Part shown: positions 651-32,074 of the stretch, piece by piece
How the letters are laid out: each line of letters starts with the position of its first letter
Position numbering within the stretch: the first letter of the stretch is position 1
NCBI GenBank assembly: GCA_021372335.1
Contig: JAJFUR010000020.1
Coordinates: 1 to 58,159 of the forward strand
Length of the DNA stretch: 58,159 nt
Origin: Methanobacteriota archaeon
Lineage (GTDB): Archaea > Thermoplasmatota > Thermoplasmata > Methanomassiliicoccales > UBA472
Reading direction: 5' to 3'
Program-made: the position numbers and the translations under genes
Notes under the pieces: model-generated
Told to the model about the DNA's origin: nothing
Seen by the model: the letters and a program-made list of their open reading frames with translations, nothing else
Databases searched by the model: none

Positions 651-652
651 CC

Positions 653-6863: not shown

Positions 6864-6897
6864 TAGATGACGGGAAAGGGTTTTGTGCTTGGTTGGC

Positions 6898-8840: not shown

Positions 8841-8842
8841 AT

Positions 8843-9625: not shown

Positions 9626-9626
9626 G

Positions 9627-10049: not shown

Positions 10050-10051
10050 GT

Positions 10052-11380: not shown

Positions 11381-11493
11381 TTTATACCTCCTTTTCAATA
11401 GCTCGGTCCCCTCAAGTAGATTCAGCATCGATCTTGAGAAAACCGGTACCCCTTGCGGACTCGACAATGTTAAGTTAGAATATAAGCTTGATG

Positions 11494-11514
11494 ATGGATG
11501 GATAATCCATCCAT
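11494..11514. promoter_or_regulatory. perfect palindrome ATGGATGGAT-A-ATCCATCCAT upstream of mcrB
   Basis: Read directly. It lies 114 bp upstream of the mcrB ATG. On the mcr strand a TATA-like CTTATATTC (11478-11486) lies just downstream of it. Confidence 0.6.
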
Positions 11515-11519
11515 GTTAA

Positions 11520-11663
11520 ACAATAGCTTAATTTGAGTCGTGTTCCAGACAAAAATGCATCTGTTTTAACATCCTAAATTTTTTTTAATATTATTTATAG
11601 TTAATATAAATAATGTTTCATTATTAATTTATTTTTCAATTGTTCTTATAATATTGATCCCCG
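11520..11663. promoter_or_regulatory. AT-rich island between tfuA and the mcr operon
   Basis: About 145 bp that are visibly more than 75% A+T within a GC-rich genome. It contains several TATA-like runs and a T8 tract. Confidence 0.4.
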
Positions 11664-12302
11664 TCATTCGCTCATCTTTTTTAGATGTCTCAGGACGGCT
11701 ATTGCGTCCTCCTTCTTAACATCTCGGTAGTTCTCCGCGAAAAACCGGTCGAAACCCTCCGCCCTAATGTCCCCAAGGACCTCCCTTGCGATGCCGAGGA
11801 AGGCGGGGATGGTCCTCCTGGGATAATAGAGGGAGCGAAGGCGGCCCAGCATCGCTCCTCTCTCTCCATCGGAAATCGCGCCATGGCTGAGCGCCTCGTC
11901 CAGAAGGCAACGGAGGTTCACCATTGGTTCCGAAAGGGGCTGTAAGGTTTCGGGATCGAAGACTAGGGCGACCTCGTCATCCCCCTCGATCGTTCCCGTC
12001 GAATAGAGTTCGTAGATCCTTCCCACGCCAATCATTCCATAGGGTCTCAGCTCAGCGGCTCGCAGGGCCCCCATGCTCCCACCGCCGACAACGCCCACGC
12101 CGCGGTTCAGGAGGGCCATGATCTCACGGTGCCCTACGGAGCAATGCTGAAGGAAGACACCGTCTATGATGCCGATCAACCTAGCGCCCGCCACATGGCC
12201 TAGGTCTCCCCGCTTCACCGGAGGGCGGTAGTCCGCATCTAGGATCTCGTATGCCTCCTGCCAAGGGAGGCTTGGCCCCAGGAATACCACTGGCCGGGTC
12301 AT
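11664..12302 (-). CDS. tfuA: TfuA-like protein (partner of YcaO in thioamidation)
   Basis: 212 aa. The N-terminus RPVVFLGPSLPWQEAYEILDADYRPPVKRGDL is typical of TfuA. It shares a 4-nt ATGA overlap with ycaO. Confidence 0.85.
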   Translation of the reverse strand: MTRPVVFLGPSLPWQEAYEILDADYRPPVKRGDLGHVAGARLIGIIDGVFLQHCSVGHREIMALLNRGVGVVGGGSMGALRAAELRPYGMIGVGRIYELYSTGTIEGDDEVALVFDPETLQPLSEPMVNLRCLLDEALSHGAISDGERGAMLGRLRSLYYPRRTIPAFLGIAREVLGDIRAEGFDRFFAENYRDVKKEDAIAVLRHLKKMSE

Positions 12303-13492
12303 GCGCCCAGCCTTGGACCTGTCCGGTCCATGTCCATTGCGTAGATCTCCATCCCCGGGATCACCATGCGCACGACCGGAATCCCTAGTTCTGGGCGGGT
12401 AAGGTCGACCGCTATCACCCTCTCGAAGCCGAGAGAGTCCAGGCGTTCGAGGACGACCTCGATGTCCTCCAAAAGGTCCTTGGTATCGCGCTCAGGGAAG
12501 CTGGACAGGGGAACCTCCTTGGATGGGGAAAAGTACATCGCGTTCAGCCGTTTCATCCTCTCATAGCCCACCGTCCGGTTCAGGTCCGCCTTTACGGTGT
12601 CCTCCCTGGCCCCATGGATCTGCGTGCATCGGCTCTGCGCCACCTCGGTGAGGGCGCGGATGGCCGCTACCCTGGGACTGAGATGGGTCCCTACGCCCAG
12701 GTTCAACAGGGCTGGGTCCTTCAGGCGCACATCGTCCGCCGCGGCCGCAATGGTTGGGACCCCGACATCGCTTGTGAGGTCCTTAAGATGCACGTCCACC
12801 CCCTGCGCATGGAACTTCTCCAATAGCTCCGAGACGACTGGGCAGCCCTCCTCCACTTGGATATCGTTCAAAGGCCTCCTCCTAGCTTCGCATATGGACC
12901 AGGCATCTCGTTCGATGACCTCGCAGATGCCGTGCAGGACCGCTTCCTCAATGGTGTTCCCGGACGCCAGGCCGTTGGTGTTGCTCCTGAAGAGCTGCAG
13001 GTCGCTCTGGGACTGATAGGGATGGAATACGGCGGCCGCCGGGACCCAGATCTCCTCGCCCTCCATAAGGTCGAACCCCTTGATCCATGCGATCGGATGG
13101 TAGTGCACGTGCACGTTGATCATCTGCGGCAGGATCAGGGCCCGCGGGTCCACGGCGTTCTCCGAGGACAGCATGTCGTCCATCAACTCCCTGCGAAGCT
13201 TATCGTCGTGGTACTCGGCCGAGTACCTTTCCATCGCCTCCATGATCGCGGAAACCTTGGCCTGTTCTCGGCTCGCCCCCTTGCCGTTGTAAATCGAAAT
13301 CGCCCCCTCCTTCGCCCCCGGACGAATGCTGGAGAAGACCGGGATCCCTATGCGGTCGAGGTCGGTTATATCCGCCACGCGCGTAATGCCGGCCTTAGGA
13401 AGTAGGGGCTCCACCCTCCTCAGCGTCGCCTTCGGGCCTATGGCGCGATGGCCGTCCTTGGTGTAGGTCTTGGGGACCGGTCGCAGTTCCAT
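12299..13492 (-). CDS. ycaO: YcaO-family protein (McrA glycine thioamidation type)
   Basis: 397 aa. YcaO-like blocks include AMERYSAEY and TNGLASGNTIEEA. It is translationally coupled to tfuA and sits directly upstream of mcr. Confidence 0.85.
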   Translation of the reverse strand: MELRPVPKTYTKDGHRAIGPKATLRRVEPLLPKAGITRVADITDLDRIGIPVFSSIRPGAKEGAISIYNGKGASREQAKVSAIMEAMERYSAEYHDDKLRRELMDDMLSSENAVDPRALILPQMINVHVHYHPIAWIKGFDLMEGEEIWVPAAAVFHPYQSQSDLQLFRSNTNGLASGNTIEEAVLHGICEVIERDAWSICEARRRPLNDIQVEEGCPVVSELLEKFHAQGVDVHLKDLTSDVGVPTIAAAADDVRLKDPALLNLGVGTHLSPRVAAIRALTEVAQSRCTQIHGAREDTVKADLNRTVGYERMKRLNAMYFSPSKEVPLSSFPERDTKDLLEDIEVVLERLDSLGFERVIAVDLTRPELGIPVVRMVIPGMEIYAMDMDRTGPRLGA

Positions 13493-14125: not shown

Positions 14126-14866
14126 TCATCCGCTCTTGATCTTACCCTTTTCCCGGGCGGGTTTAAGCCTTTGCAAGGCTTGGACGATCGCCTCGAGCTT
14201 GGTCGCAGGGATGCCTACCAGCATCTCGGTGGGCTCTAGGTCGGTCGCTTTGCGGCACCCATAGCATCCTATGGACACGCTGAGCGTGCCGGTGAGGTAT
14301 GGATATACGGTGGAATAGGCGCAGCTCGCCTGGAACGTTTCCATCTCAATGAGCATCTTGCCGCCCTCGAAGTATTTGGCTGCGACCGGTACAAGCCAAT
14401 AGAGCTGCTCTGGGGTCCCGGTGACGATCACCACATCCGGGGGTATCTCCGCCTTGCTGAGCGGGGACACCGCGGTAGCGATGACGTCCCCCATCTCCAG
14501 TTGGGGGCGCTCCTCTATCATTCTCCTCGCCGCTTCCTGGTTGGCGAACATGCCCAGGTTGAAGTGGAACTCCCCGCTCCTCACCTTGTCCGGGATGGGC
14601 ACCATCCCGAGCGCCGAGGCGCCCACATGGCACGCGTGCTTATCCGGTGTCAGCAGCAGCTTCTCCCCTTTCCTGGCCCTCATGACGGACTGGCAATGGC
14701 GTATGTTCTTTTCCGGGATCTCGTACCCCTTGGGCAACTGTTGCCCCTTCCTCACCAGTGTGACGGCTACTGGCTCTGTCTTCAGTTCTAGCACGTCCAT
14801 GATGATGCGGGAACAGTTGGCGTAATCGGTCATGATGATATCGAGGGGGTTGCTGGTTTTTAACAT
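14126..14866 (-). CDS. DUF169-like protein
   Basis: 246 aa. The overall pattern (LELKTEPVAVTL...HCQSVMRARKGE...ACHVGASALG...) matches my memory of DUF169 proteins. Confidence 0.65.
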   Translation of the reverse strand: MLKTSNPLDIIMTDYANCSRIIMDVLELKTEPVAVTLVRKGQQLPKGYEIPEKNIRHCQSVMRARKGEKLLLTPDKHACHVGASALGMVPIPDKVRSGEFHFNLGMFANQEAARRMIEERPQLEMGDVIATAVSPLSKAEIPPDVVIVTGTPEQLYWLVPVAAKYFEGGKMLIEMETFQASCAYSTVYPYLTGTLSVSIGCYGCRKATDLEPTEMLVGIPATKLEAIVQALQRLKPAREKGKIKSG

Positions 14867-18035: not shown

Positions 18036-18803
18036 ATGGAAGGGACGAACGCGTGGCCGGTGGTCAGTGGGGACTACGTCCTGGGGAACGAAGCCTCGCC
18101 GGTGGCGGTGCTCATAGTGGGCAGGGGGGCGGTGGACGTCCCGAAGGACCTCTTCTGCATAAAGGGCATACTGAAGACAGAGAACATCGGGCTCGAGAAG
18201 GTGATCGCCAACATCGTCTCCAACCCGCGCATCCGGCTCCTTGTCCTCTGCGGCAGGGAGGAGTTCGGGCACTTTCCCGGGGAGGCGATCCACGCGCTCA
18301 TGGCCCACGGGGTCGACGAGCACAAACGCATCAGGAACACCAGATCGGCCATCCCCTTCCTGTGCGATCTTCCGTTCGAGGCCATCGAACGCTTCCGGCA
18401 ACAGGTGGAACTGGTGGACATCATGGACGCCTCTCCGGCCAAGGAGATCGCGGCGTACGACCCTATCTATGAGTTCGACGAGGAAGGGCGGGGGCGGTTG
18501 GTGAGCACGTTGAGGACACTTGCGGAGCAGCCCCTTGAGCCGTTCCCGGAGGAGGCTGTAATAGTCCGCTCCAAGGCCCTTGCCGGTGAGGGGGGAAGCA
18601 TTGCCACCCAGTTGCACCTGGCCTCGGATGATTTCATCACCCCTATGCTCCGCCTGCCCTCGGATGGGCTGAACACAGGAATGGGCATGGTCCTGGTCTC
18701 CGAGGAGTTCGGGGTGGTCCTAGAGCCCCTGCGAGGGAAGGTGCTGACCGTCCCGTCCGTTGAGCTGGCCTTGCGATTGCGCTCCTATCTCATGGGGGTG
18801 TGA
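18036..18803 (+). CDS. soluble MtrA-like corrinoid protein (MtxA-like)
   Basis: 255 aa. WPVVSGDYVLGN, KTENIGLEKVIANIVSNPRIRLLVLCGREEFGHFPGEAIHAL and AIERFRQQVELVD align with MtrA, including the His of the cobalt-ligand region. There is no C-terminal TM helix. Confidence 0.8.
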   Translation: MEGTNAWPVVSGDYVLGNEASPVAVLIVGRGAVDVPKDLFCIKGILKTENIGLEKVIANIVSNPRIRLLVLCGREEFGHFPGEAIHALMAHGVDEHKRIRNTRSAIPFLCDLPFEAIERFRQQVELVDIMDASPAKEIAAYDPIYEFDEEGRGRLVSTLRTLAEQPLEPFPEEAVIVRSKALAGEGGSIATQLHLASDDFITPMLRLPSDGLNTGMGMVLVSEEFGVVLEPLRGKVLTVPSVELALRLRSYLMGV

Positions 18804-18804
18804 C

Positions 18805-19689
18805 ATGTACCGGTTCCAGATGGAGCAGCGGGTCCTGAGCGTCGGGGACGTGCGGGTCGGGGGGCAGCCCGGTAAGAAAAGGACGATGCTTGTTGGTTCC
18901 CTTTTCTATCCCCGGCATTCAGTCGTCCTCGACCCTCGTCGGGGGACGTTGGACCATGCTCGGTTAACGGACCGACTGGACCGCTACCTCGAGGCCGTGC
19001 GCGCCTGCGCCTGCCCCTCCGCCCTGATGCTGTACGCGGAGAGCGAGGAGGCCACCCGACCATACCTTGAAGCGGTCTGCGACCGCGTTACGGGGCCGCT
19101 TTTCGCTGATGCCGGGACCTTCCAGGTCCGATCGGCCTTCCTCAGGAACGCCGAGGAGATGGGGCTCCTGGACCGAGTGGTGTACAACACCATCAATGCC
19201 GGCCTGTCAGTTGAGGAGACGGAGGCGCTTCGGGCCTGCCCACCGGTCAACGCCGTCGTGCTCGCCTTCAATCCCAGGGGGGATGACGTGAAGGGGCGCA
19301 TATACATGCTGGAGAACGGGGACGACATCGCGCCGCAAGGGCTGATCGGCGCGGCGGAGGAGCTGGGCATCGAAAATATATTGATAGACACGGCGGCGAC
19401 CTCCCCCGAGCTGAGCGCTGGCTCCGCCCTCCGCGCCATCCTTGTTGCGAAGGCGAAGTGGGGTCTGCCGACCGGGTGCGCACTGCACAATGCCGTGGAA
19501 TGCCTGGACCTGCACGGGACGCCGGACCCGGAGGAGGCGCGCAGGAGCGTGGACAGCTCCGCCGTGGCGATCAGCATACTGGCCGGGGCGGACTACGTCG
19601 CCTATGGACCGTTCGAATACGCCAAGCGCACCATGCCGGTGGCGGCCTTCGCGGACAGGATGATGGAGCAGGCGGCGCGGGACCTCTAG
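18805..19689 (+). CDS. MtrH-like methyltransferase (MtxH-like)
   Basis: 294 aa from the ATG at 18805, 1 nt after the upstream stop. It has MtrH-family character throughout (VGGQPGKKRTMLVGSLFY...NTINA...ILIDTAA...). TAG stop. Confidence 0.75.
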   Translation: MYRFQMEQRVLSVGDVRVGGQPGKKRTMLVGSLFYPRHSVVLDPRRGTLDHARLTDRLDRYLEAVRACACPSALMLYAESEEATRPYLEAVCDRVTGPLFADAGTFQVRSAFLRNAEEMGLLDRVVYNTINAGLSVEETEALRACPPVNAVVLAFNPRGDDVKGRIYMLENGDDIAPQGLIGAAEELGIENILIDTAATSPELSAGSALRAILVAKAKWGLPTGCALHNAVECLDLHGTPDPEEARRSVDSSAVAISILAGADYVAYGPFEYAKRTMPVAAFADRMMEQAARDL

Positions 19690-20531
19690 AGCTCCATCTG
19701 GCATCCCGTGCCCAGGAGCTCGAATCCTGGGAAGCGGTCGGAGAAGGCTTTCGTGGCCGCGAATCCTGTACAATGCATCGGGGCCACCTTCTCGACGTTG
19801 AACCTCTTGACCCCGTCTATGGACCTCAGGAGCATGTCCGGGGCCGCCCGCCATAGATGGAACCCTCCGGCCACCATGGCGATCTTCCTATCGCTCCGTC
19901 GGCGGACCTGGGAGAGGATGTTCACTATCCCGGCGTGGCCGCAGCCTGTGAGCACCACGATCCCCTTCTTCGTCGATACGCAGAGCGCCTGCTCCTCCAT
20001 GATCAGGTCCGGGGTCCTGTGACCGTCCCGTTCAATGACGAAGGATGAGGGAACCTCGAAGCTGGTGCTCCGCTGCACCTCCCCGGTGGTGCTCACCCCG
20101 GGCACCAATTCCCTTGGCCTGTCGTCATAGGTCGGGGGGTTGTCCCTGAGAAGCGCCAGAAGCCCCTCCGAGGGGCCGATCTCCCTAAGCCTACCGGAGG
20201 TCTCGATGAACCTCCTCCCCAGGAATGTGGAGGGATGGGTGTAGCATGGGACCCCCTCCCTCAGGAGCGCGGGCAATCCTCCTAGATGATCGTAGTGGCC
20301 ATGGGAGATGAACACCATGTCCAGGTCCTTTGGCCGAAGGCCCAGGAGATCGAGGTTATGGAGGAACGCCCTCTCCGAGGAGCCGGTATCCATAAGCACC
20401 TTCTTCCCCCGGTCGGTCTCCACCAGGAGGGAGAGGCCGTGCTCGGAGAGGAACCCTCCGCTCGCCTTGGCGATGGAGCGGTCGGGGTCCTCCACGCCGC
20501 TGTTGTCGTCGACCACACAGGTGAGGCGCAC
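19686..20531 (-). CDS. MBL-fold metallo-hydrolase, MJ0301/COG1237-like
   Basis: 281 aa with a GTG start directly abutting the ramA stop. It contains LSEHGLSLLVE...VLMDTG and HGHYDHLGGL. Confidence 0.75.
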   Translation of the reverse strand: MRLTCVVDDNSGVEDPDRSIAKASGGFLSEHGLSLLVETDRGKKVLMDTGSSERAFLHNLDLLGLRPKDLDMVFISHGHYDHLGGLPALLREGVPCYTHPSTFLGRRFIETSGRLREIGPSEGLLALLRDNPPTYDDRPRELVPGVSTTGEVQRSTSFEVPSSFVIERDGHRTPDLIMEEQALCVSTKKGIVVLTGCGHAGIVNILSQVRRRSDRKIAMVAGGFHLWRAAPDMLLRSIDGVKRFNVEKVAPMHCTGFAATKAFSDRFPGFELLGTGCQMEL

Positions 20532-22190
20532 TTACGCGTCCGCTCCCTTCTCGACGATCTTCAATGCGGTGAAGTCGTAGACGCCCTCCGGGCACACAGC
20601 CTGGCATTTCTTGCACGCCGTTCCGAGGCAATGCTCGGTGTTGACCTTTATCTGGAACCTCTTGTCCTTCCTGTCCCCTAAGGGAGAGACCTGCAGCGCC
20701 CTCTCTGGACATTCCTTCTGGCATTTCTTGCACCCGATGCAGCCCTCGAAAGAGCCGATGAGGTACACCCCGACATCGTCCAGGGTCCGCAGCCCGCGGG
20801 CCCCGATCACTGGGATGTCCGAGAGCACCAACCGCACGGTCTCCTTGGGACGCTTGATCTCCGGCAGGGGGCGCAGGCCCGCATGCTTGATCATATCATT
20901 GTACATCTCCATGGACATGCCCTCCGTCCAATAGGCGATCTCGTTGACATAGATCTCCTCGAACACCTTGCTCGTGGCGAACATGATGTGCTTGCTTGAG
21001 ATCGCGTTCGCCACGTCCTGCAACTTGTCCAGGCCGCTATCGTCTACCAGTATGTCATAGGACATCATCAGGGAGGTGTTGCCAGCCTGAACGGTCTTGT
21101 CCAGCACTCGAGGGATGAGCCCCACGGTCTGCGCCTTGATCGGATCGACGTACGTCCCGGACGCCCCGGCCATGTACATGGTCTTGATGGCATCGTCCTC
21201 CACCCCCACCTCCTCGATCAGGGTGCGATGCCCGGCACGAATGGCCCCGATCGCCTTTCCCGCCTCCCGGACGTCCTCTTCGCCGAAGTGGATACCGTTG
21301 GTGAGATGGATCCTGTGGTCAGGGGTGGCGACATAGGGAAGCTTGATCACCCCGGTCTCCAGGCCCAATGCCATCGCGGCGACCGTCCCGGTCCCGGTGA
21401 TGCCCCGGGCGACCACCCCGTCCAAGCGCCGCTCCTCACCGGTGGTGGGATCCACGAGAGAGGACTTGACTGGGTGAAGGTTGTCGTTGAGCACGATATT
21501 GTACCATTTACCGTCGTCCGCCAAGGCCAGGTCGGAAATGGCCTGCGGAGCGGCCAGCATGCCGAAGTCTATGGACTGCCCCTCCATGGCCGGGCCCGCG
21601 GCGGCGGAGCCTGTGTAGAGTTCGCCCTTGTGGAACAGCCCCATCTCGGCGTTGGTCCCATAGTCCGTGACCATGCACGTCTCGTTCTTCTCCATGAGCC
21701 CGGTCTTCATGACCATTGCGAGCGCGTCGGCGCCTATCTCGTGCCGGATGGACGGGGGGATGCGCACCTCGGCGGTGCCCTTAACGGATCTCATCCCCAG
21801 CTCCTCGGCCTTGATGGTATGGGCCTTCCTCTCCGGCACCTTGACGTTGAGCCTCTTGAGGATCGACTGCCCCGCGAAGGCCAGGTCGCGGATCTCTATC
21901 TTCTCGAACATAGACATCTGGGCGGGGTTGCCGCAAACGGACACCCGGATGATCTCCTCGGGCTTGGCGCCCATGGTCCCAATGAGCTTGTCTACGGTCT
22001 CGATGATGATACGGTGCCCGACGTCCGCCCCGTTCTCCATCCAGAAGTGCAAATGGTCCATGATGTTGGCCCCGGGCAACGGATGCCTCATGGTGATGGC
22101 CGTTGCCAAGATCTTCCCTTTCTTGTCCAGGTCGACAAGGTGCCCCCGGTACCCGCTAGTGCCCAGATCCAGCGCGACTCCCAATGCCAT
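20532..22190 (-). CDS. ramA: corrinoid protein reductive activase (RamA family)
   Basis: The ORF runs to 22256. The ATG at 22190 (MALGVALDLGTSGYRGHLVDL...) aligns closely with RamA as I recall it. The C-terminus has two 4Fe-4S motifs (CIGCKKCQKECP, CKKCQAVCP). Confidence 0.85.
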   Translation of the reverse strand: MALGVALDLGTSGYRGHLVDLDKKGKILATAITMRHPLPGANIMDHLHFWMENGADVGHRIIIETVDKLIGTMGAKPEEIIRVSVCGNPAQMSMFEKIEIRDLAFAGQSILKRLNVKVPERKAHTIKAEELGMRSVKGTAEVRIPPSIRHEIGADALAMVMKTGLMEKNETCMVTDYGTNAEMGLFHKGELYTGSAAAGPAMEGQSIDFGMLAAPQAISDLALADDGKWYNIVLNDNLHPVKSSLVDPTTGEERRLDGVVARGITGTGTVAAMALGLETGVIKLPYVATPDHRIHLTNGIHFGEEDVREAGKAIGAIRAGHRTLIEEVGVEDDAIKTMYMAGASGTYVDPIKAQTVGLIPRVLDKTVQAGNTSLMMSYDILVDDSGLDKLQDVANAISSKHIMFATSKVFEEIYVNEIAYWTEGMSMEMYNDMIKHAGLRPLPEIKRPKETVRLVLSDIPVIGARGLRTLDDVGVYLIGSFEGCIGCKKCQKECPERALQVSPLGDRKDKRFQIKVNTEHCLGTACKKCQAVCPEGVYDFTALKIVEKGADA

Positions 22191-22395
22191 GGATAACCTC
22201 GGAGGGGGAATGCCGTGAACGGATTTATAATACTGTTTACTATGCTGTCCCCCCATGCCGATGCTATGCTGCGCATCGCACTTTTTATGGTAAGATCGCG
22301 CATGTTAGCCGCGTCCAGTCTCGATGCGGATAGGGTTGCCAACGCATCGGGGGCAATGGAATTATATCCGTGAGGCTTCTACCCTCCCTGATTCC

Positions 22396-23061
22396 ATGAG
22401 GATAGCTCAGGTGACCGGTTTCTTGGGGAGCGGAAAGACCACCTTCCTCATTGAGGTGGCGAAGGAGCTTAACGCGCGGGGGTTGAAGGTGGCCACCATC
22501 GTCAATGACGTGGGGCATATCAACGTCGACCGGAAGTGCATGGAGGTGCATGGGATCAATACGATGGAGATCTCCGGCGGCTGCATTTGCTGCGAGGTGC
22601 AGGGCACGCTGACCACGACGGTCACCAACATCTTCCTGAGCTATAGGCCGGACATCATCCTTGTCGAGCCGACGGGAGTGGCCATCCCGCTGGGGCTCAA
22701 GCAAGCTGCGGCGGAGACGGTGAAGAAGATGCCCAATGTCCTGGTGCAGGCGCCCATCGTGACCTTTGTGGACGCCATGCGCATCGACAAACTGATGAAC
22801 AACGTCCGACGGCTCGTCGAAACGCAGATAGTAGAGGCGGACGCCGTGCTCATCAACAAGGTCGACGCCGTAAGCGATGAGCGCCTTCGACAGGTAACGG
22901 AGATGGTCCGGGGGCTTAACCCGGAGGTTGGCATTCTCTATGGTTCCTCCCGCACCGGACAGGGAGTGAGGGAGGTGGCCGACATCATGATGAGCGGGGA
23001 AGCGGCAACGTATGACCTTACTGAGGCGGAGGACCGCTTCGACCGGAAGTACGGGGAGTGA
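22396..23061 (+). CDS. CobW/G3E-family GTPase metallochaperone, GTPase domain only
   Basis: ATG at 22396, 221 aa. It has the P-loop GFLGSGKTT, the metal motif GGCICC, and NKVD. Confidence 0.8.
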   Translation: MRIAQVTGFLGSGKTTFLIEVAKELNARGLKVATIVNDVGHINVDRKCMEVHGINTMEISGGCICCEVQGTLTTTVTNIFLSYRPDIILVEPTGVAIPLGLKQAAAETVKKMPNVLVQAPIVTFVDAMRIDKLMNNVRRLVETQIVEADAVLINKVDAVSDERLRQVTEMVRGLNPEVGILYGSSRTGQGVREVADIMMSGEAATYDLTEAEDRFDRKYGE

Positions 23062-23065
23062 GCCG

Positions 23066-23518
23066 GTGGACCAGAAGGAAAGGCAGCTGCTGACGCATAG
23101 GGCCTCCGACGAACTGGGCAAGTTCTCCATGTGGCTTCGGCTCTATATCAAGGACCCCTTGGACGGGAAGCGAGCGGAGGAGATGGTCGTGGACCTGCTG
23201 GACGGGATCACCCGGGAGTGCTTCGCTCGCGGGGCGGACATGATCGGGCACGTCAAATCGTTCCTCACCGCCGAGGACGGCTCCACGATCAGCGTCAGCC
23301 TGATCGACATGGACATCCCTCCGACGGTCCAGAACCGGTTCGACGGGACGGAGATGGTCCGGGGGGAGCTAATCGTGCACGTCATCGTTCATGGGATGTG
23401 GGACCCCCAGGTGAGGGAAGCCTCCTTGGACTTCACCAAAGGGTTCATGGCCGAGCGCTCCATTGAATACGAGGTCGTCAACGACTTCTACGAGAAGGAG
23501 AAGCGCATAAAGGACTGA
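23066..23518 (+). CDS. small protein, possibly a detached CobW C-terminal-like domain
   Basis: GTG at 23066 lies 4 nt after the cobW-like stop; an alternative ATG is at 23129. The segment IGHVKSFLTAEDGSTISVSLID resembles the CobW_C beta-core. The start is uncertain. Confidence 0.45.
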   Translation: MDQKERQLLTHRASDELGKFSMWLRLYIKDPLDGKRAEEMVVDLLDGITRECFARGADMIGHVKSFLTAEDGSTISVSLIDMDIPPTVQNRFDGTEMVRGELIVHVIVHGMWDPQVREASLDFTKGFMAERSIEYEVVNDFYEKEKRIKD

Positions 23519-23557
23519 GCGCGCAAAGGATTTCTAGGCCCAAGCAAATGAGGGGGC

Positions 23558-24607
23558 ATGACCCCCAGGGAGAGGTTCGATGCGGCCTTCGACAGGGCAC
23601 CGGCGGACAGACCACCGATCATGTATCAGCACCTGGGGGCGGCCAGGACCGTCCTGAGGGCGGCGGGGCTCACCATGCGCGAAGGGTACCATGATCCCGA
23701 GAAGTTCGCCCGCATCTGCACTATGGCCCAACGGATCACTGGGTTCGACAATGTCATGGCCGGATGGGGGGACATCCTGGTAGAGGCGCATGCTCATGGC
23801 ACGCTCTGGAGATGGCCGGAGAAGGACTACTACCCTCGCTCGGACGGGTACGCCATAGGGTCGTTGGCCCAGTTGGACCAGGTTCGATCGGTGGATCCAA
23901 TGGACGATCCATATTGGTCCGTGCCCCTTCGGGCCGCTGGTCTCATGCAGGAACGGATCGGGGAGGAAGTGGCGGTGCTGGGGTGCATCACCGGGCCGAT
24001 GATGATGGGCGGGGAGGTCATGGGCTATGAGGCCCTGCTCATGGCCACCTGGGCGGAGCCAGACCTTGTCGAGGAGCTGATGGGCCGCCTGCTCGGGTCC
24101 TCGGCCGCCTATGGGGAGCACTTGGCCAGGATGGGGGTCGGGTACGTCTTCATTGAGGATGGGACATGCAGCGCGGACGTCAATTCCATCGAGGGGTTGC
24201 AGCGGTTCGACCTTGGAATGCTGTCCAGGATGCTCTCGGCCTTCCGTTCCCAGGGCCTCAGGTCCATAGTGCATAACTGTGCCAACAATCCCTATCTTGA
24301 TGGCTATCCGGGCATGGAGATCGACGCCCTCCATTTCACCCCTAAGGCCGAGGAGCGAAAGGGCCTCTATGACAGGTTCCGCAAGGAAATGACGGTCATC
24401 GGCGGAATAGACCAGACGGTCCTGCTGTTCAAAGGCTCCCCCGAGGAAGTTGCCAGGGAGGTCCAGGGAATGTTGGCCGATTGGGGCGATGGCCCGGGGT
24501 ACATGGTGGCGCCAGGGTGCGAGATGCCCTTCAAGACCCCGATGGAGAACATCATCGCTCTGAGGGAGGCCGTGGCCGGGGTCCGCCCCCTGCCCCGGGA
24601 TGGTTGA
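23558..24607 (+). CDS. uroporphyrinogen decarboxylase-family (MtaA/CmuA-like) methyltransferase
   Basis: 349 aa. GAGGGGG lies upstream of the ATG. Candidate zinc ligands are H-x-C (VHNCAN) and a distal Cys (APGCEMP). Confidence 0.75.
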   Translation: MTPRERFDAAFDRAPADRPPIMYQHLGAARTVLRAAGLTMREGYHDPEKFARICTMAQRITGFDNVMAGWGDILVEAHAHGTLWRWPEKDYYPRSDGYAIGSLAQLDQVRSVDPMDDPYWSVPLRAAGLMQERIGEEVAVLGCITGPMMMGGEVMGYEALLMATWAEPDLVEELMGRLLGSSAAYGEHLARMGVGYVFIEDGTCSADVNSIEGLQRFDLGMLSRMLSAFRSQGLRSIVHNCANNPYLDGYPGMEIDALHFTPKAEERKGLYDRFRKEMTVIGGIDQTVLLFKGSPEEVAREVQGMLADWGDGPGYMVAPGCEMPFKTPMENIIALREAVAGVRPLPRDG

Positions 24608-24776
24608 ACGCGTGTTAATTAAAATTCGCGGTCGTTTCATTGGGCGAAGGAGATGCCAGCGTCTGTGGAATTAACTCGTGTTAATCGATGTCCTGGATGC
24701 TTGCACCCCCGATAGATTAATGTACGGTAAAAATGATACTTGGGACAGGTCAGATTCCTACTGGACTATAGGGGGA

Positions 24777-25799
24777 ATGAATTTGCCTGAAAAATTGACT
24801 CCAAGGGAAAGAGTATTGGACGCCCTTAAGGGCAAGAAGCATGACAGGCCGCCGGTCGCGGTTTTCACCCAGAGCGCAACCATGGGACAGATGGACGCCC
24901 TCGGCGTCTCCTGGCCGGATGCCCATTACAACGCGGACCTTATGGTCAAGCTGGGCGCTGGCCAGGCCAAGGTCTTCGGGTTCGAGGCCGTTCGGGCGCC
25001 GTTCTGCCTGACGGTTGAGGCCGAGACCCTGGGAATGACCGTTGACAAGGGCCGCAAGGACAGGACGCCTATGATAAAGGGGCACTCCTTCCAGATGGAG
25101 GACGAGCCTAACCTCATGGACGTCAAGACCTTCCTGAAGAGCGGCCGGGCTGCCATATGCCAGGAGGCCATAAGGAAGATGAAGGCGACCTATGGGGCCG
25201 AGTACCCGATCATCGCCGGCAACACCGGCCCGTTCACCCTGGCCGGGCACATGGTCGGTACCGAGAACCTCGTGCTGTACATCATGGTGGACCCAGACCT
25301 GGTGCACAAGTGGGTTAAGGCCGTCAACGTGATATGCACTGGATACAGCCAGGCTCTGGCCGATGCCGGAGGGGACGTGGTCCAGATGTCCGAGCCCTCC
25401 GCAAGCACCGATCTGCTTTCACCGGAGATGTTCGATGAGTACGCTGGCGCCTACGTGAAAGGGTCCCTGGCCCCCGTAAAAAGGGCGACAGGTGTACTAC
25501 ACATCTGCGGGAATACCACCCCCATCCTCAACAACATGATCAACACCGGCGTGAAGGCCCTCTCCATCGAGGAGAAGGTCGTTCCCGAGGAGGCGGTCAA
25601 GATCGTCAACCACCGGGCAGCCCTGATAGGGAACGTTGGCGTCGTCAACCCGCTGCTCCAAGGAACCCCGGCGGACGTCATGGCCCATGGCAAGCGCTGC
25701 GCTGCCGCCGGCTTCGACGTGGTGTCCCCGGGATGCGGGCTGTCCGCCCTCATCTCGAACGACAACCTGGCCGCGCTGGTCAAGGCCGTCAAGGGCTAA
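24777..25799 (+). CDS. methylcobamide:CoM methyltransferase (MtaA/MtbA-type MT2)
   Basis: The ORF starts at 24678. ATG 24777 (MNLPEKLTPRERVLDAL...) is preferred, giving 340 aa. It has LHICGNTTPIL (HxC) and SPGCGLS. Confidence 0.8.
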   Translation: MNLPEKLTPRERVLDALKGKKHDRPPVAVFTQSATMGQMDALGVSWPDAHYNADLMVKLGAGQAKVFGFEAVRAPFCLTVEAETLGMTVDKGRKDRTPMIKGHSFQMEDEPNLMDVKTFLKSGRAAICQEAIRKMKATYGAEYPIIAGNTGPFTLAGHMVGTENLVLYIMVDPDLVHKWVKAVNVICTGYSQALADAGGDVVQMSEPSASTDLLSPEMFDEYAGAYVKGSLAPVKRATGVLHICGNTTPILNNMINTGVKALSIEEKVVPEEAVKIVNHRAALIGNVGVVNPLLQGTPADVMAHGKRCAAAGFDVVSPGCGLSALISNDNLAALVKAVKG

Positions 25800-26911
25800 G
25801 CGCCCTCAAAACCTCTTTTCTTTCCATTTCTTTCTCTCACCCGTCCATCCTCGTCATAGTATCTCTTCTTGAACCACAGCGCCAGGTTCACCAGGCTTAT
25901 GAGGGCGGGGACCTCGACCAACGGCCCGACCACGGCCGCTAACGCCACGTCCGAGCCGATCCCGAAGACGCCGATAGCCACCGCGATGGCGAGCTCGAAG
26001 TTGTTGGACGACGCGGTGAAGGACTGCGCGGCGGCATGCGGGTAGTCGAACCTCAAGCGGATGGAGATGGTGAACGAGAGGAGGAACATTATTATGAAGT
26101 ACACCAGAAGGGGGAGGGCGATGCGCAGCACGTCCAGCGGGAGCTGGACGATGTACTCGCCTTTCAAAGAGAACATCACAACGATGGTGAAGAGGAGCGC
26201 CAGCAGGGACACCGTCCCCATGACCGGCATGAACCGTCTATCGTACCACTCCGCCCCTTTATAGGGACGGAGGAGGCGACGGGTCAGCATCCCTCCGAAG
26301 AACGGGATCCCCAGGTAGATCAGCACCGTCTCGGCCACCTCCATAACGGTGATGTCGACCTCCACTCCAGAACCTGGGACCAGGAAGTCTGAGAGCACGA
26401 AGACGAGGAAATAGGCGTAGAGGGCATAGAGCGCGATCTGGAACAGGGAGTTCAGGGCCACGAGGACGGCCGCGTACTCAGTGTCCCCCTCGGCAAGCTG
26501 GTTCCACACGAGCACCATTGCGATGCAACGGGCGATGCCGGTGAGGATGAGCCCGATCCGGTACCCGGGATGGTCCGGAAGGAATATCCAAGCTAGGGCG
26601 AACATCAGCAGCGGGCCGACGATATAGTTCAGGGACAGGGAGACGGAGAACATCCGGCGGCTCCCGGGCATCCTGAGCAGTTCGGGAAGGTCCTCGTACC
26701 GGACCTTGGCCAGGGGAGGGAACATCATCAGGATCAGCCCGACCGCGATGGGAATGGAGGTCGTTCCAATGCTCAACGAGCTGAGGGCATCGGCCATACC
26801 AGGAACGACGGTGCCTAGGAGCACTCCGATGAACATTGCCAAAAATATCCACAAGGTCAGATAGCGATTAAGGAAAGGAAGGCCTGTCGTAGTTCCGCTC
26901 AGGGCGGTCAC
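25796..26911 (-). CDS. acr3: ACR3-family arsenite efflux transporter
   Basis: 371 aa. It has FLNRYLTLWIFLAM and MMFPPLAKVRYE and is polytopic. GTG start, TAG stop. Confidence 0.85.
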   Translation of the reverse strand: MTALSGTTTGLPFLNRYLTLWIFLAMFIGVLLGTVVPGMADALSSLSIGTTSIPIAVGLILMMFPPLAKVRYEDLPELLRMPGSRRMFSVSLSLNYIVGPLLMFALAWIFLPDHPGYRIGLILTGIARCIAMVLVWNQLAEGDTEYAAVLVALNSLFQIALYALYAYFLVFVLSDFLVPGSGVEVDITVMEVAETVLIYLGIPFFGGMLTRRLLRPYKGAEWYDRRFMPVMGTVSLLALLFTIVVMFSLKGEYIVQLPLDVLRIALPLLVYFIIMFLLSFTISIRLRFDYPHAAAQSFTASSNNFELAIAVAIGVFGIGSDVALAAVVGPLVEVPALISLVNLALWFKKRYYDEDGRVRERNGKKRGFEGA

Positions 26912-27077: not shown

Positions 27078-29042
27078 TTACTTCCCCTTTCTGACCGCGG
27101 GATCGCCGGTCGCCCGGGCCACGATGTCCACCCAGGCGGTCTGCTCACCCTCGACGTTATCGCCCCCGTAGAACTTGTTCTCGTAGACGTCGCTGCGGAC
27201 CTTGATGTTCTCGGCCCCTGCCTCGTATGCGCGGTTCCACACGTACTCCTCGGCCTGCCGCCGGGCGGATGATATGGCCTGCTCCACATGACTGTACGTA
27301 CCGGTCGAGCCGAAGGGACCGAGGACGTAGAAGACGTTGTCCATATTGGGATAGACCTGGGCGGTGACGGTCTCGGAGATCTTACTGCATACCGCCCCGA
27401 CGGCGTTGCCGACGTCGTGGTCCCTTGGAATGACCACCCTGACGTCCATGCGCTTCTCGAGCGGGGGCATGTAGATCGGGGTCGGCGCCCCTATCCCGAC
27501 CAGTGGCCGGTCCAGTCTGGTCCTGAGGACCAAGCTGCTTCCCTGGTTCCCATTGACCGTGGCGCGGAGGAGATAGTTGAAGCCTGGACCGTCCGGCATC
27601 TCCCCCGATTCGTCGAGGACGATCTTCCTCATTACCTCCTCTCCGACCCGGGTAACGAACTCCTGCTGGAAGGACTCCAGGCATTCCCCGACGGTCGTAT
27701 GGGTCCGATCGGCGATGAACTGCACGCCCAGCCGGGCCGCCTCCACATCGAAGCGGGTGAAGTGGCCCTGCACGTGCATGAAGTCCGTGGCGGTGAGCCC
27801 CGTCATCTGAAGGAAGCCGCGGTCCTTGAGATGCTTGACCACGTCCCGATATGTATACACCTCGGGGGCGCCGCGCCTGATCTCCTCCAGGGTGCAGAGC
27901 GGGTTGGCCTTGACGAACTCGTACACCTCCTTCTCCTTAGGGGAAAGCTTGGCCGTCCCCCTCTCCACAGGAAGGTAGTAGTTGGTCTCGCCAGTGGCGC
28001 CCATCCTCTCCCTCAGCCGGGGATGGGCGACCGAGGCCACGGCCAACGGCACCACCCGCTCCGGCCCGATCTTGAAGTTGCCCCTCTGATCGGGGACGAC
28101 ATGCGAGTCCCCGCCCAGGCCCACGGTCCAGATGTCTATGGCCCGGACCCTGGTCCGCCAATGGCCGACGGTCGCCCCCTCCTTGGAGATGCGTGGGAAG
28201 CCATCATCCAGGAAAGCGATGTCCGTGGACGTGCCCCCGATGTCCACCACGATGAAGCTATCCTCCTTGCTGAGCAGCTTGGCGCCCATCAGGCTTGCGG
28301 CCGGCCCGGACAGGATGGTCTCCACGGGGCGCTCCCGGGCCTTCTCGATGCTCATGAGGGTCCCATCCCCCTTGAAGACCAGGATCGTGGCGTCGATGCC
28401 CCTCTCCTTCAGGGAGCGCTCCACCCCGTCCAGGAACTCGGATATGACCGGTAGCAGCCTTGCGTTGAGCACAGCGGTGACGCTGCGCTCCGGCACACCG
28501 AGCTGAGAGGTCAGATGATGGCCCAGCACGACCGGCAGGCCGGTCCGTTCCTTGATGGTGCGGGCCGCCTCGATCTCATGGGCGGGGTTGTACACGCTGA
28601 AATGGCTGGAGACGACGAAGGAGTCGACCTCTCCCTTCATTCTTTCTATGGCCTCCTCGAGCGCGTTGGTGTCCAAGGGGGCGAGTTCCTGGGCCCATAC
28701 CCCGTGCCCCCCCTTGATATAGGCATCCATGTCCGCCCCCGAGCGGAACCCGGGCGTCGGGGTCCATCCGATCCCTATATGCCCAACCTTGCCGCCCTTC
28801 CCGGTCAAAATGGAATTGGTGGCGAGGGTCGTGGAAAGCCCTACGAACTGGATCTCGCTTCGCTCACATTCCTCGCACTGCAGCACATCGTCGATCGCCT
28901 CCAGGACCCCGATGGCCAGGTCTTGGTACGTGGTCTGGGCCTTGCCCTTTGCCAGGACCTCCAGGCTCTCCATGTCCACGATCGCCGCATCGGTGTATGT
29001 GCCCCCAGTATCAAGCCCAAGTCCAAGCTTCCTGGTCGCCAT
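27078..29042 (-). CDS. hydantoinase/oxoprolinase-family (HyuA-like) protein
   Basis: 654 aa. It has an ASKHA phosphate-1 motif (GLDTGGTYTDAAIV) and a second one (VVDIGGTSTDIA). Confidence 0.75.
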   Translation of the reverse strand: MATRKLGLGLDTGGTYTDAAIVDMESLEVLAKGKAQTTYQDLAIGVLEAIDDVLQCEECERSEIQFVGLSTTLATNSILTGKGGKVGHIGIGWTPTPGFRSGADMDAYIKGGHGVWAQELAPLDTNALEEAIERMKGEVDSFVVSSHFSVYNPAHEIEAARTIKERTGLPVVLGHHLTSQLGVPERSVTAVLNARLLPVISEFLDGVERSLKERGIDATILVFKGDGTLMSIEKARERPVETILSGPAASLMGAKLLSKEDSFIVVDIGGTSTDIAFLDDGFPRISKEGATVGHWRTRVRAIDIWTVGLGGDSHVVPDQRGNFKIGPERVVPLAVASVAHPRLRERMGATGETNYYLPVERGTAKLSPKEKEVYEFVKANPLCTLEEIRRGAPEVYTYRDVVKHLKDRGFLQMTGLTATDFMHVQGHFTRFDVEAARLGVQFIADRTHTTVGECLESFQQEFVTRVGEEVMRKIVLDESGEMPDGPGFNYLLRATVNGNQGSSLVLRTRLDRPLVGIGAPTPIYMPPLEKRMDVRVVIPRDHDVGNAVGAVCSKISETVTAQVYPNMDNVFYVLGPFGSTGTYSHVEQAISSARRQAEEYVWNRAYEAGAENIKVRSDVYENKFYGGDNVEGEQTAWVDIVARATGDPAVRKGK

Positions 29043-30507: not shown

Positions 30508-31371
30508 TCATTCAACCTTCCCAACCACCCCCTGGTCGACGAGAGGGGTGTGGATGTTGGACCCTTCCCCGCCCGCCATCGTCCGGAGGTATAGATCGTT
30601 GATCAGCTCTAGCGCCATATGCCCCTTGGGTGTTAGGGCGTAGTCACCCCGGCCTCCCCTCTGGAAGACCATGCCCGAGCTGGTCAGCCTTTGGAGATGG
30701 AACAGTAGGTTGCCGCCCCGAAGGTTGGTTAGGTTCGAGAGCTCGGAGAAGGAGCGCTGGGACCTGCTCAATGCCTTCATGATGACCAGCCTTTGGACGT
30801 TGGCCATTGGCTCCAACAGCCCCCGCACCACCGCCTCCTCCGGCAGGGCCTCGATGCTCTCTCTGACCTCATCCCGGCTCATATAGAGCCTAAGCTGGCG
30901 CATCAGCTCCGTCTGGTCCTTGAAAAGGGCGCCGACCTCCTTGAAGCACGCATCGCACCTGCCAGGGACGGCAGTGGAACGGAGCGTTTCAAGCTTCTGC
31001 GATTGCCTGCACATGTCCTCCTCGGAGATCCTCCGCTGCCCCATCATGTCCAGGTTCTCATCGAGCAGCTCCATGAACCTCCGCCGGCACTCGGGGCGCA
31101 TTTCGCATCGCTTTGTCATTCCGGCCGTGAGCCGGCTCTCCGCCTTTTCGCGCGCCTCATCGCGCAACAGCTCGAACACCTCAGACCGGCCGTTGATGCC
31201 GAGCTGCGAGCTTTCCAGAAGGGTGCTGATGTACCGGAGCTCTATCCCCAGCTCATCCACCCTCTGCCTCAGCTGGAACAGCTCCCTTTCCATATCGCTC
31301 ATCTCAGTGCTCGTATTTTGCATCATTATCGCTACATAATGATGCCCTCGGAGTATAAAATAATGTACCAT
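30508..31371 (-). CDS. transcriptional regulator with a C-terminal ArsR-like wHTH and an N-terminal coiled-coil/Cys-rich region
   Basis: 287 aa; the start could also be 31326. The HTH region is LVIMKALSRSQRSFSELSNLTNLRGGNLLFHLQRLTSSGMV. The Cys motifs are RCEMRPEC and RCDAC. Confidence 0.65.
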   Translation of the reverse strand: MVHYFILRGHHYVAIMMQNTSTEMSDMERELFQLRQRVDELGIELRYISTLLESSQLGINGRSEVFELLRDEAREKAESRLTAGMTKRCEMRPECRRRFMELLDENLDMMGQRRISEEDMCRQSQKLETLRSTAVPGRCDACFKEVGALFKDQTELMRQLRLYMSRDEVRESIEALPEEAVVRGLLEPMANVQRLVIMKALSRSQRSFSELSNLTNLRGGNLLFHLQRLTSSGMVFQRGGRGDYALTPKGHMALELINDLYLRTMAGGEGSNIHTPLVDQGVVGKVE

Positions 31372-31438: not shown

Positions 31439-32074
31439 TTAACCCTTCAGCAGCTGGGTGGCGACCCGGACGGCCTCGTTCGCGTCGTAGCCCCAGCCAT
31501 CGGCCCCGATGCTCTTAGCAAAGTCCTGGGAGGTCGCACCACCGCCGATCATGGTCTTGATCTTGCCCTTCAGGCCGCTCTCGACCAGCATCTTCTCAAT
31601 TTCCTTCATTCCTGCCAGTGTCGGGGTCATCAGGGTGGAGGTCGCGATGATCTGGGCGTTCTCGTCCTTCGCCTTCTGTATGATGTCCTTCAGGGGCACG
31701 TCACGGCCCAGGTCGAACATGGTGTTCCCGGCTCCGGTCAGCAGGGCCTTGACGATGTTCTTGCCGATGTCGTGGACATCCCCCTCGACCACACAGATCA
31801 CGATCTTCCCCGCAGCCTCAGCGGAGGCCGTGTCCAACTTCGGAAGGGCCAAGTTCAATCCCTGGTACAGCGTCTGAGCGGACAGCAGGACCTGGGGCAG
31901 GAAGTACTCCTTCTTTTCGTACTTCTCGCCCACGATCTCCATTGCCTTGCTCAGTCCGTTGAAGATGATCTCTCTGGCGGTGACCCCGGAATCAAGGAGT
32001 CGCTGGGTCTCCCCCTTCGCTTCCTTGATCCTCCCCTTTACCACTATGTCGATCAATGTGTCCAAGTTTGCCAT
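31439..32074 (-). CDS. methyltransferase cognate corrinoid protein (MtbC/MttC/MtmC-size class)
   Basis: 211 aa. It has the B12-binding DxHxxG motif (GDVHDIGKN) and an N-terminal helical cap. GGAGG lies 9 nt upstream of the ATG. Confidence 0.88.
   Translation of the reverse strand: MANLDTLIDIVVKGRIKEAKGETQRLLDSGVTAREIIFNGLSKAMEIVGEKYEKKEYFLPQVLLSAQTLYQGLNLALPKLDTASAEAAGKIVICVVEGDVHDIGKNIVKALLTGAGNTMFDLGRDVPLKDIIQKAKDENAQIIATSTLMTPTLAGMKEIEKMLVESGLKGKIKTMIGGGATSQDFAKSIGADGWGYDANEAVRVATQLLKG

Follow-up and report, generated by a model that had tools for sequence, protein, structure and literature searches.

A soluble MtrA-like/MtrH-like gene pair recurrently linked to UroD-family methyltransferases and corrinoid accessory genes in the Methanomassiliicoccales: a candidate methyl relay

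We analyzed a 58,159-nucleotide stretch of archaeal DNA (assembly GCA_021372335.1, contig JAJFUR010000020.1, positions 1 to 58,159, here called the window) in which genes for a soluble MtrA-like corrinoid carrier and a predicted MtrH-like pterin:corrinoid methyltransferase lie in a 7.8-kb cluster (18036-25799) of corrinoid methyl transfer genes. The source of the locus is a member of the Methanomassiliicoccales; the nearest public loci are in metagenome-assembled genomes (MAGs) such as UBA472, with protein identities of 74 to 80%, and the relatives fen_33 and fen_65 are classified as f__UBA472. The mtrA-like gene (18036-18803, + strand, 255 amino acids [aa]) is followed by the mtrH-like gene (18805-19689, +, 294 aa). 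Convergent to them are genes for a COG1237-type metallo-β-lactamase (MBL)-fold protein (19686-20531, -; Lactamase_B, 7.7e-13) and for RamA, the ATP-dependent reductive activase of corrinoid proteins (20532-22256, -). Divergent from ramA are a CobW-like GTPase gene (open reading frame [ORF] 22324-23061, +, start probably at 22396), a gene for a 129-aa small protein (23129-23518, +, within ORF 23012-23518), and two genes of the UroD family, uroD1 (23558-24607, +; PF01208, E = 5e-48) and uroD2 (24678-25799, +; PF01208, E = 4e-69). The methyl-coenzyme M reductase genes mcrBDGA lie 6.6 kb upstream of the cluster, separated from it by TfuA/YcaO, AsnC regulator, and DUF169 genes.

All of the genes that an initial annotation, made from the DNA alone, had named in this cluster were recovered at their positions by ORF listing and Pfam/NCBIfam scans. 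Both of its tight junctions were read from the DNA: the mtrA/mtrH junction is TGA-c-ATG at 18801-18807, with a 1-nt spacer, and the ramA/MBL junction is TAA-GTG, with 0 nt between the genes. No unassigned space inside the cluster exceeds 205 nt, and therefore MtrB-G cannot be encoded there, as the annotation had held. The scan of the window covered nearly every ORF of 180 aa or more, shadow frames excepted (most against Pfam only, the cluster genes also against NCBIfam), and no ORF scanned matched an MtrB-G family. The larger ORFs scanned likewise gave no match to MtaB, MtmB, MtbB, or MttB, so that the annotation's statement that no recognizable substrate-specific methyltransferase (MT1) is present stands. 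The absence is not an anomaly, as the annotation had taken it to be, because MtrH is itself the MT1 for a methyl-pterin donor and because UroD-family enzymes can be MT1s. An Rfam scan of the cluster found no riboswitch and no other RNA element.

The MtrA-like protein consists of an MtrA Rossmann domain (residues 1 to about 170; PF04208, E = 1.8e-42, over residues 4 to 140 only) and a soluble C-terminal extension of about 85 to 110 aa, which is present in all relatives aligned and replaces the juxtamembrane and transmembrane segment. The lack of a membrane anchor was borne out by the hydropathy profile: the highest Kyte-Doolittle mean over 19 residues is 1.29 and falls in an N-terminal β-strand. 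The closest PDB match is 5LAA, a cytoplasmic MtrA homologue (E = 2e-39), whose cobalt ligand His84 corresponds to H79 and whose Glu54 corresponds to E49; both residues are invariant in 28 relatives. An AlphaFold2 (AF2) model (42 sequences; pLDDT 87.5, pTM 0.86) superposes on 5LAA and 5L8X with TM-scores of 0.85 to 0.89 (0.89 for the N-terminal domain on 5LAA). The extension is modeled as a confident soluble α/β fold, for which there is no PDB counterpart.

The MtrH-like protein (PF02007, E = 3.9e-62) matches MtrH in the PDB (9QTP, 2e-45) slightly better than it matches MtgA (6SJ8, 4e-36), an enzyme that uses tetrahydrofolate (H4F). The initial annotation had asked whether the pterin-binding residues are kept, and we mapped the MtgA pterin contacts given by Badmann & Groll (S32, D75, D102, N129, D194, and N227) onto the MtrH-like protein. 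Five of the six (S32, D102, N129, D194, and N227, all contacts to the pterin ring) are invariant in 116 MtrH-like family members. At the sixth, D75, the MtrH-like protein has Met and the 9QTP MtrH has Gln; the N5-side motif reads "HN," the form found in true MtrH. By these residues, the enzyme should bind a pterin.

An evolutionary explanation for such a pair is that MtrA and MtrH are the decaying leftover of an ancestral Mtr with no current function, and remnant status has been discussed for other archaea that have MtrAH and no further Mtr subunits (Adam et al., 2022). For the pair described here, we regard this as highly improbable. Its ORFs are intact in more than 50 genomes, the catalytic residues are invariant across sequence identities of 41 to 80%, the tight operon junctions are kept, and the MtrA-like protein has acquired an extension at its C terminus that is conserved and confidently folded; the frequent frameshifts and relaxed selection of a decaying locus are not seen. 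Where a locus of the order has both genes, they adjoin each other directly, with one or two exceptions; in L131 and L132 they lie on opposite strands (L-numbers denote the loci of relatives that were compared with the window).

The initial annotation had equated the pair with mtxA/mtxH, and this did not hold up. The MtrA-like protein falls below the curated models for both MtrA (TIGR01111, 133 against a cut-off of 249) and MtxA (NF010654, 124 against 279), and the MtrH-like protein falls below its models (TIGR01114, 212 against 271; NF002142, 200 against 287; MtgA model, 144 against 550). A genuine mtxX-mtxA-mtxH locus from the outgroup Methanosalsum (L124) passes the cut-offs that the window's 124 and 212 miss (MtxA, 300 against 279; MtxH, 410 against 271 for TIGR01114), as does its MtxX (TIGR03270, 233 against 190). 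No ORF scanned in the window, most of them against Pfam only, matched MtxX or a phosphate acetyl/butyryltransferase-like family. Because the pair lies below the curated MtrA, MtrH, and MtxA cut-offs while the genuine locus passes, the model scores place it as neither Mtr nor Mtx in the strict sense, in agreement with the separate clade of Zinke et al. (2020).

The core of this system is already published. Soluble mtrAH without mtrB-G was described in environmental Methanomassiliicoccales, in the MALP genome, by Speth & Orphan (2018), who noted an "unusual C-terminal extension" of MtrA and a divergent MtrH. They further noted that tetrahydromethanopterin (H4MPT) has no role in the order, whose one-carbon (C1) pathway uses H4F, and proposed a methyl-H4F:coenzyme M (CoM) methyltransferase; in the literature, the order has no H4MPT methyl branch. 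Later surveys (Zinke et al., 2020; Xie et al., 2024; Adam et al., 2022) bore out this distribution without settling the function, and the genes are enriched in the environmental, free-living clades of the order (Zinke et al., 2020; Xie et al., 2024). The annotation's idea of an undescribed soluble route is thus right in that the parts fit a soluble relay and wrong in that the gene pair and a proposed role have been in print since 2018 and were surveyed again from 2020 to 2024; its premise that this lineage lacks the membrane Mtr agrees with the published surveys. What the present analysis adds is a set of partners and a candidate for the acceptor-side enzyme.

The two UroD-family proteins of the cluster are only 22% identical to each other. 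UroD2 passes two curated models (subfamily NF004889, 319.5 against 244; TIGR01463, 288 against 235) and fails the MtaA_Meth equivalog (318 against 400). It carries the HxC...C motif, which is kept in 25 of 25 UroD2-type sequences aligned, and we assign it by sequence as an MtaA-type methylcobamide:CoM methyltransferase (MT2). UroD1 lies below every MtaA, MtbA, and CmuA cut-off (119 against 244; 98 against 235) and matches MtaA (4AY7) at 1e-15 only. Aligned to 4AY7, its metal motif is H239, C241, and C321, the same motif as in UroD2, and the residues of this His-x-Cys...Cys pattern are the zinc ligands of MtaA. Within the UroD1 family, H239 is invariant, C321 is found in 144 of 151 sequences, and position 241 holds either Cys (121 sequences) or Asp (30 sequences); N240, E322, H259, and D285 are family-specific invariant residues.

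UroD1 homologues were found only in the Methanomassiliicoccales, as 88 clusters in a collection of 5.8 billion proteins and as 70 of 70 loci in GTDB species genomes, and the family is multi-paralogous, often with several paralogues per genome. A profile search that covered 1.84 billion representatives met, outside the family, a continuum of unnamed UroD-family proteins, the nearest outgroups being from Promethearchaeota, Humimicrobiaceae, and Coriobacteriales, with no characterized close relative among them. By these sequence criteria, UroD1 belongs to an order-specific, zinc-motif UroD/MtaA-like clade and is a candidate for either of two roles, partner methyltransferase to the MtrA-like carrier or substrate MT1. 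The HNC/HND split at residue 241 (about 24278-24280 in the window) is an observation of its own: the Asp form is somewhat commoner in copies unlinked to mtrAH, and when Cys/Asp was tried as a marker of mtrAH linkage, it gave a weak trend (19:10 versus 5:10) that is confounded by phylogeny. In two Methanomethylophilaceae-type MAGs (L036, 9032-13570; L049), a UroD1 paralogue stands in a string of TerC, UroD1, ACR3, and an ArsR-fused, ArsM-like S-adenosylmethionine (SAM) methyltransferase, which hints that some paralogues are tied to metalloid handling.

The accessory genes of the cluster were characterized in the same way. RamA is well supported (TIGR04270, 700 bits against a cut-off of 500) and has the ASKHA and C-terminal 2x[4Fe-4S] architecture (RACo_C_ter, 3.7e-64; Raco_middle; Fer4_7 at residues 506 to 559); its true start is probably near 22190, and ramA is divergent from uroD1 in nearly all relatives. 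The MBL-fold protein has PDB matches to 2P4Z and TM1679 at about 1e-35, and its gene accompanies ramA in many loci, whether or not these have mtrAH, and is missing from others. The idea that COG1237-type MBL proteins belong to H4MPT biosynthesis found no support in a literature search and was dropped. The CobW-like protein (PF02492, 2.3e-39) has the N-terminal GTPase domain only, with the P-loop GSGKTT and a GCICC motif and no CobW_C domain. All curated models score it below cut-off, the best being "CobW-related selenoprotein" (104 against 180), and we consider it a putative metal or cofactor insertase. Directly after it, always, comes the 129-aa protein, which has no Pfam or NCBIfam match, is 80 to 88% identical in close relatives and 34 to 46% identical in distant loci, and gave a single-sequence AF2 model that is unusable (pLDDT 53). 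It might conceivably stand in for the missing CobW C-domain as a split-off part. The CobW start at 22396 and the bounds of the small protein were set by homologues.

Since in close relatives the entire region is syntenic, unrelated flanking genes included, their gene order is little informative, and conservation was judged on relatives whose proteins are only 41 to 50% identical. In these, mtrAH occurs with UroD, RamA, CobW plus the small protein, or a hydantoinase-like gene in at least four arrangements. In one of them (proteins 45 to 50% identical), mtrA-mtrH stands beside ramA, with or without the MBL gene, followed by uroD1, uroD2, the hydantoinase-like gene, and a corrinoid protein gene. 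In another, far from ramA (L033/L119, L035/L130, L105, L112, and L115), a second uroD1 paralogue lies directly upstream of mtrA-mtrH and a hydantoinase-like paralogue converges on mtrH. A third consists of cobW-small-mtrA-mtrH strings in eight distant MAG loci. The fourth, in L132, reads mtrH, mtrA, DUF169, corrinoid protein, UroD-like, corrinoid protein, cobW, small gene, and hydantoinase-like gene, and L072 has the gene set of L132 without mtrAH. We sampled 23 distant loci by their MtrH (37 to 49% identical, with sufficient flanks). MtrA adjoins MtrH in 22 of them; within 8 kb there is a UroD gene in 17 and a corrinoid-system accessory gene in 21. Seen from the other side, 24 of 44 nonredundant UroD1-family genes are no more than 6 kb from mtrAH. 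The clustering exceeds what chance would give, and, with such different arrangements, plain synteny does not account for it. Linkage that survives rearrangement argues that MtrAH is functionally coupled to UroD-family enzymes, to CobW and the small protein, and to the activase; the conservation that the initial annotation had asked about thus extends well beyond close relatives.

Other genes also recur beside the pair. DUF169 (COG2043; 14126-14866 in the window) is the usual divergent neighbor of mtrA in distant relatives and stays by mtrAH in the rearranged loci L110, L131, and L132; in the window's genus, genes for a 274-aa protein, a DUF1616 membrane protein, and a 241-aa Cys-rich protein are inserted between DUF169 and mtrA. 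The 254-aa protein of L072 was compared with this 241-aa protein and is not similar to it. TrkA/TrkH potassium uptake genes adjoin mtrA-mtrH in two otherwise different arrangements (L044, 11117-14023; L114, 13524-16406), probably as a synteny relic. A class I SAM methyltransferase gene comes directly before the cobW-small-mtrA-mtrH strings (L114, 7419-8087; also L111, L116, L118, and L120-L123), and its product has a weak, subthreshold likeness to the model for the "corrinoid protein-associated methyltransferase CpaM."

Part of the cluster is also conserved without mtrAH. In RumEn M1 and on contig 20 of MXMAG1, mcr is followed by AsnC, ramA (-), uroD1 (+), uroD2 (-), and a corrinoid protein gene (-), and the set of ramA, uroD1, uroD2, and corrinoid protein is an order-wide unit in its own right. 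In the window, the corrinoid protein of this backbone is encoded at 31439-32074 (-), 7 kb from uroD1. It is an orphan of the MtaC/MtbC type with B12-binding_2 and B12-binding domains (PF02310, 6e-23; PF02607, 3e-18; TIGR02370, 188 against 215) and the DxHxxG motif (EGDVHDIGKN in the translation), and there is no adjacent MT1. It is kept downstream of UroD2 at 65 to 93% identity, also in genomes without mtrAH, and two kinds of corrinoid carrier, MtrA-like and MtaC-type, are accordingly encoded at the locus. Because the backbone is conserved even without mtrAH, the 7.8-kb block is a composite and not one indivisible operon. The MtaC-type protein, the hydantoinase-like gene, and the mcr operon had not figured in that annotation.

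This backbone raises the possibility that two independent units merely lie side by side: a housekeeping set of RamA, UroD1, UroD2, and MtaC-type protein near mcr and a separate MtrA-MtrH, perhaps with CobW and the small protein, whose function might be the methyl-pterin-dependent methylation of another acceptor. The backbone is indeed kept without mtrAH in L010, L011, L045, L046, and L064; mtrAH may stand beside ramA, 2.5 kb off, 15 kb off (PtaU1.Bin124), or elsewhere (MXMAG1); and the cobW-small-mtrA-mtrH strings have no UroD gene and no ramA nearby. Against this, mtrAH away from ramA again adjoins UroD1 and hydantoinase-like paralogues (L105, L112, L115, L119, and L130), and in L132 it lies beside a corrinoid protein, a UroD-like gene, CobW, and a hydantoinase-like gene. 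An independent MtrA-MtrH would also be left without an acceptor-side enzyme. We judge a mere juxtaposition to be unlikely.

Within the membrane-bound Mtr, it is MtrH that methylates Co(I)-MtrA with methyl-H4MPT as the donor, and the onward transfer to CoM is attributed to MtrE (PMC4915002, Fig. 1 legend). Canonical Mtr thus needs a membrane subunit for the CoM half-reaction, which makes a soluble MT2-type enzyme the logical replacement where MtrE is missing; by the same argument, MtrA-MtrH alone lacks an acceptor-side enzyme, which is a gap in the 2018 proposal. The parts list at the locus fits a soluble pterin-corrinoid-thiol methyl relay. We propose, at what we consider even chances, that the locus encodes a Methanomassiliicoccales-specific relay of this kind, which would connect a pterin C1 carrier with the thiol/methyl-CoM side without MtrB-G. 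The MtrH-like enzyme would exchange the methyl group between N5 of a reduced pterin, most likely H4F to go by the literature on the order, and the Co(I)/CH3-Co(III) center of the MtrA-like carrier, which would be His-on through H79. In place of MtrE, a UroD-family zinc methyltransferase would exchange the methyl group between carrier and thiol, a role for which UroD1 is the first candidate because its paralogues form uroD1-mtrA-mtrH strings, with UroD2/MtaA as the fallback. RamA would re-reduce Co(II) at the expense of ATP, and metal or cofactor loading may fall to the CobW-like GTPase together with the small protein. The mtrAH module would then have been grafted onto the order-wide backbone of ramA-uroD1-uroD2 and the MtaC-type protein near mcr.

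Several observations weigh against this proposal. The cobW-small-mtrA-mtrH strings have no UroD gene within 9 kb. Orthologues of uroD1 adjoin ramA in genomes or loci without mtrAH (L010, L045, L064, and L050), which indicates that UroD1 is independent of MtrA and could serve the MtaC-type protein. RamA is known as an activase of MtaC-type proteins, not of MtrA-type carriers. Finally, the residues that bind the H4F tail in MtgA, Y230 and R236, are not kept in the MtrH-like protein, although that binding mode is unique to MtgA; with the tail residues lost and the "HN" motif present, H4F versus H4MPT cannot be called from sequence.

UroD1 could instead be the MT1 of a three-component system that demethylates a substrate, in the manner of the O-demethylase/Mto systems or of MtsA. 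It would take a methyl group from an unrecognized donor (a methylated thiol, a methoxy-aromatic compound, or another heteroatom) and give it to the MtrA-like carrier or the MtaC-type protein, from which MtrH would pass it to a pterin and/or UroD2 (MtaA) would pass it to CoM. There are precedents for MT1s of the UroD family in the bifunctional MtsA and in the O-demethylases OdmB/VdmB. UroD1 is only 22% identical to the MtaA-like UroD2 and below the MtaA/MtbA cut-offs, its family is multi-paralogous like families of substrate-specific MT1s, and uroD1-uroD2-corrinoid protein-ramA would make a complete set of MT1, corrinoid protein, MT2, and activase even without mtrAH. MtsAB-type genes have been reported in the order, with use of methyl sulfide inferred from transcripts, although which genes were meant is not established. 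On the other side, UroD1 keeps the thiol-activating metal motif of MT2 enzymes and has no characterized close relative, the backbone spans gut and environmental clades with differing substrate ranges, and the need for a second, MtrA-type carrier would go unexplained. On balance, we find this reading unlikely. The broader form of the idea, in which the whole UroD1 clade comprises substrate-specific MT1s for unrecognized methanogenic donors (thiols, ethers, even metalloids) and the MtrA-like protein and MtrH branch off to the pterin, is distinctly unlikely in our estimate. If true, it would provide an archaeal, MtrA-based counterpart of the bacterial O-demethylase/Mto systems and would widen the substrate range of a globally distributed order.

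Returning to the pterin-thiol relay, methyl transfer from methyl-H4MPT to CoM is exergonic by about 30 kJ/mol, and transfer from methanol to methyl-pterin is near equilibrium. These thermodynamics make both directions feasible, the catabolic one from methyl-pterin to CoM (as in the proposal of Speth & Orphan) and an anabolic one toward methyl-pterin. We favor the anabolic direction, weakly and by a narrow margin. Such a flow could draw on methylated corrinoid proteins rather than on methyl-CoM and would provide free-living, H2-dependent methyl reducers with methyl-pterin from which to make methionine and acetyl-CoA; the enrichment of mtrAH in free-living clades mildly favors this role. An AMP-forming acetyl-CoA synthetase is encoded at 53143-55125 of the window and bears on the dependence on acetate for cell carbon.

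The Methanomassiliicoccales are important methane producers in wetlands and guts and lack the Mtr pump. How, if at all, their methyl-CoM is connected with the pterin C1 pool decides whether their cell carbon can come from methyl groups and, as has been speculated, whether formate, CO2, or acetate can serve them as sources of methane. Homologues of MtrA and MtrH in soluble form occur widely (MtxAH in Methanosarcinales; mtrAH in Methanomassiliicoccales, Asgard archaea, Bathyarchaeia, and others) and have had no established function since 1997. The conserved neighborhood narrows the question to a few soluble proteins, namely, the MtrH-like and MtrA-like proteins, UroD1 or UroD2, RamA, and possibly CobW with its small partner, and offers a candidate acceptor-side enzyme that earlier proposals left out.

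Downstream of uroD2, the window encodes an ACR3 pump, a hydantoinase-like ASKHA protein, a membrane protein, an ArsR-type protein, and the MtaC-type corrinoid protein already described. The gene for the ACR3 arsenite efflux pump (25796-26911, -), whose product scores 412 with TIGR00832 (cut-off, 283), has a 4-nt overlap with the stop codon of uroD2. It is a variable insertion outside the core, found in some close relatives and absent from others. The hydantoinase/oxoprolinase-like ASKHA protein (27078-29042, -; Hydantoinase_A, 3.9e-40; Hydant_A_N, 3.3e-28; MutL, 3.7e-11; GlmL, 8e-8) is encoded by a gene that in many loci adjoins uroD2 or converges on mtrH and is duplicated in L072. Proteins of this kind, 650 to 690 aa long with a weakly GlmL/MutL-like N terminus, recur across the order (L072, 15325-19383; L044, 15759-17825). 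GlmL and MutL are accessory proteins of B12-dependent mutases, and the hydantoinase-like protein might be a second ATP-dependent maintenance factor for corrinoid proteins. The ArsR-type helix-turn-helix protein (30508-31371, -; HTH_5, 3e-6), which has a long N-terminal region, co-occurs with the corrinoid protein in L014-L024, L027, L067, L071, and L081 and is a possible regulator; like that protein, it is kept downstream of UroD2 in most relatives, those lacking mtrAH among them. The left part of the window (45-13492) is a methyl-CoM reductase neighborhood with a McrC-like ORF, an AtwA-like ABC ATPase, a large radical SAM protein, mcrA/G/D/B, and the thioamidation pair TfuA/YcaO.

Among known systems, the locus is closest to the mtrAH genes of the type described by Speth & Orphan, with the same gene pair in the same order, the MtrA extension, a divergent MtrH, and no MtrB-G. 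The papers from 2018 to 2024 treat the pair alone, do not discuss its neighbors, and assume that MtrA itself gives the methyl group to CoM, whereas here the pair is recurrently linked to a UroD clade, RamA, CobW with the small protein, and the hydantoinase-like gene. With the membrane complex MtrA-H, the window pair shares the MtrA fold with His/Glu cobalt ligation and the MtrH fold with its pterin-ring residues and "HN" motif. In contrast to that complex, it has no MtrB-G, no transmembrane helix, and no possibility of Na+ coupling, and its two genes are directly adjacent, whereas mtrF and mtrG separate mtrA from mtrH in canonical mtr operons. The MtxXAH systems of the Methanosarcinales/Methanocellales are likewise based on a soluble, adjacent MtrA-like/MtrH-like pair outside the mtr operon. 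The MtxA of L124, however, is 197 aa long and passes NF010654, while the MtrA-like protein of the window, at 255 aa with its C-terminal extension, fails it, and the identities between the two pairs are 39% for MtrA and 34% for MtrH.

The MtgABC, Mto, and bacterial O-demethylase systems resemble the locus in their combination of an MT1 (UroD-type or other), a corrinoid carrier, an MtrH-family pterin methyltransferase, and a RACE/RamA activase, and the MtgA pterin contacts are kept in the MtrH-like protein. They differ in that the carrier beside the MtrH of the window is of the MtrA type, not the MtaC type, and in the MtgA score of 144 against 550. In Methermicoccus, the methyl group goes to H4MPT rather than to CoM. 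The MtaABC/MtbA systems with RamA correspond to the MtaA-type UroD2, the bona fide RamA, and the nearby MtaC-type protein; unlike in those systems, there is no MtaB, MtmB, MtbB, or MttB among the window ORFs scanned, and UroD1 stands outside the MtaA/MtbA equivalogs. The likeness to the type 1 mlp clusters, for which a sulfur or selenium methyl metabolism has been proposed (Kountz & Balskus, 2023), is one of parts list: they also combine several UroD paralogues, a corrinoid protein, and an activase without a recognizable substrate MT1, but they lack a pterin methyltransferase and are found mostly in Firmicutes.

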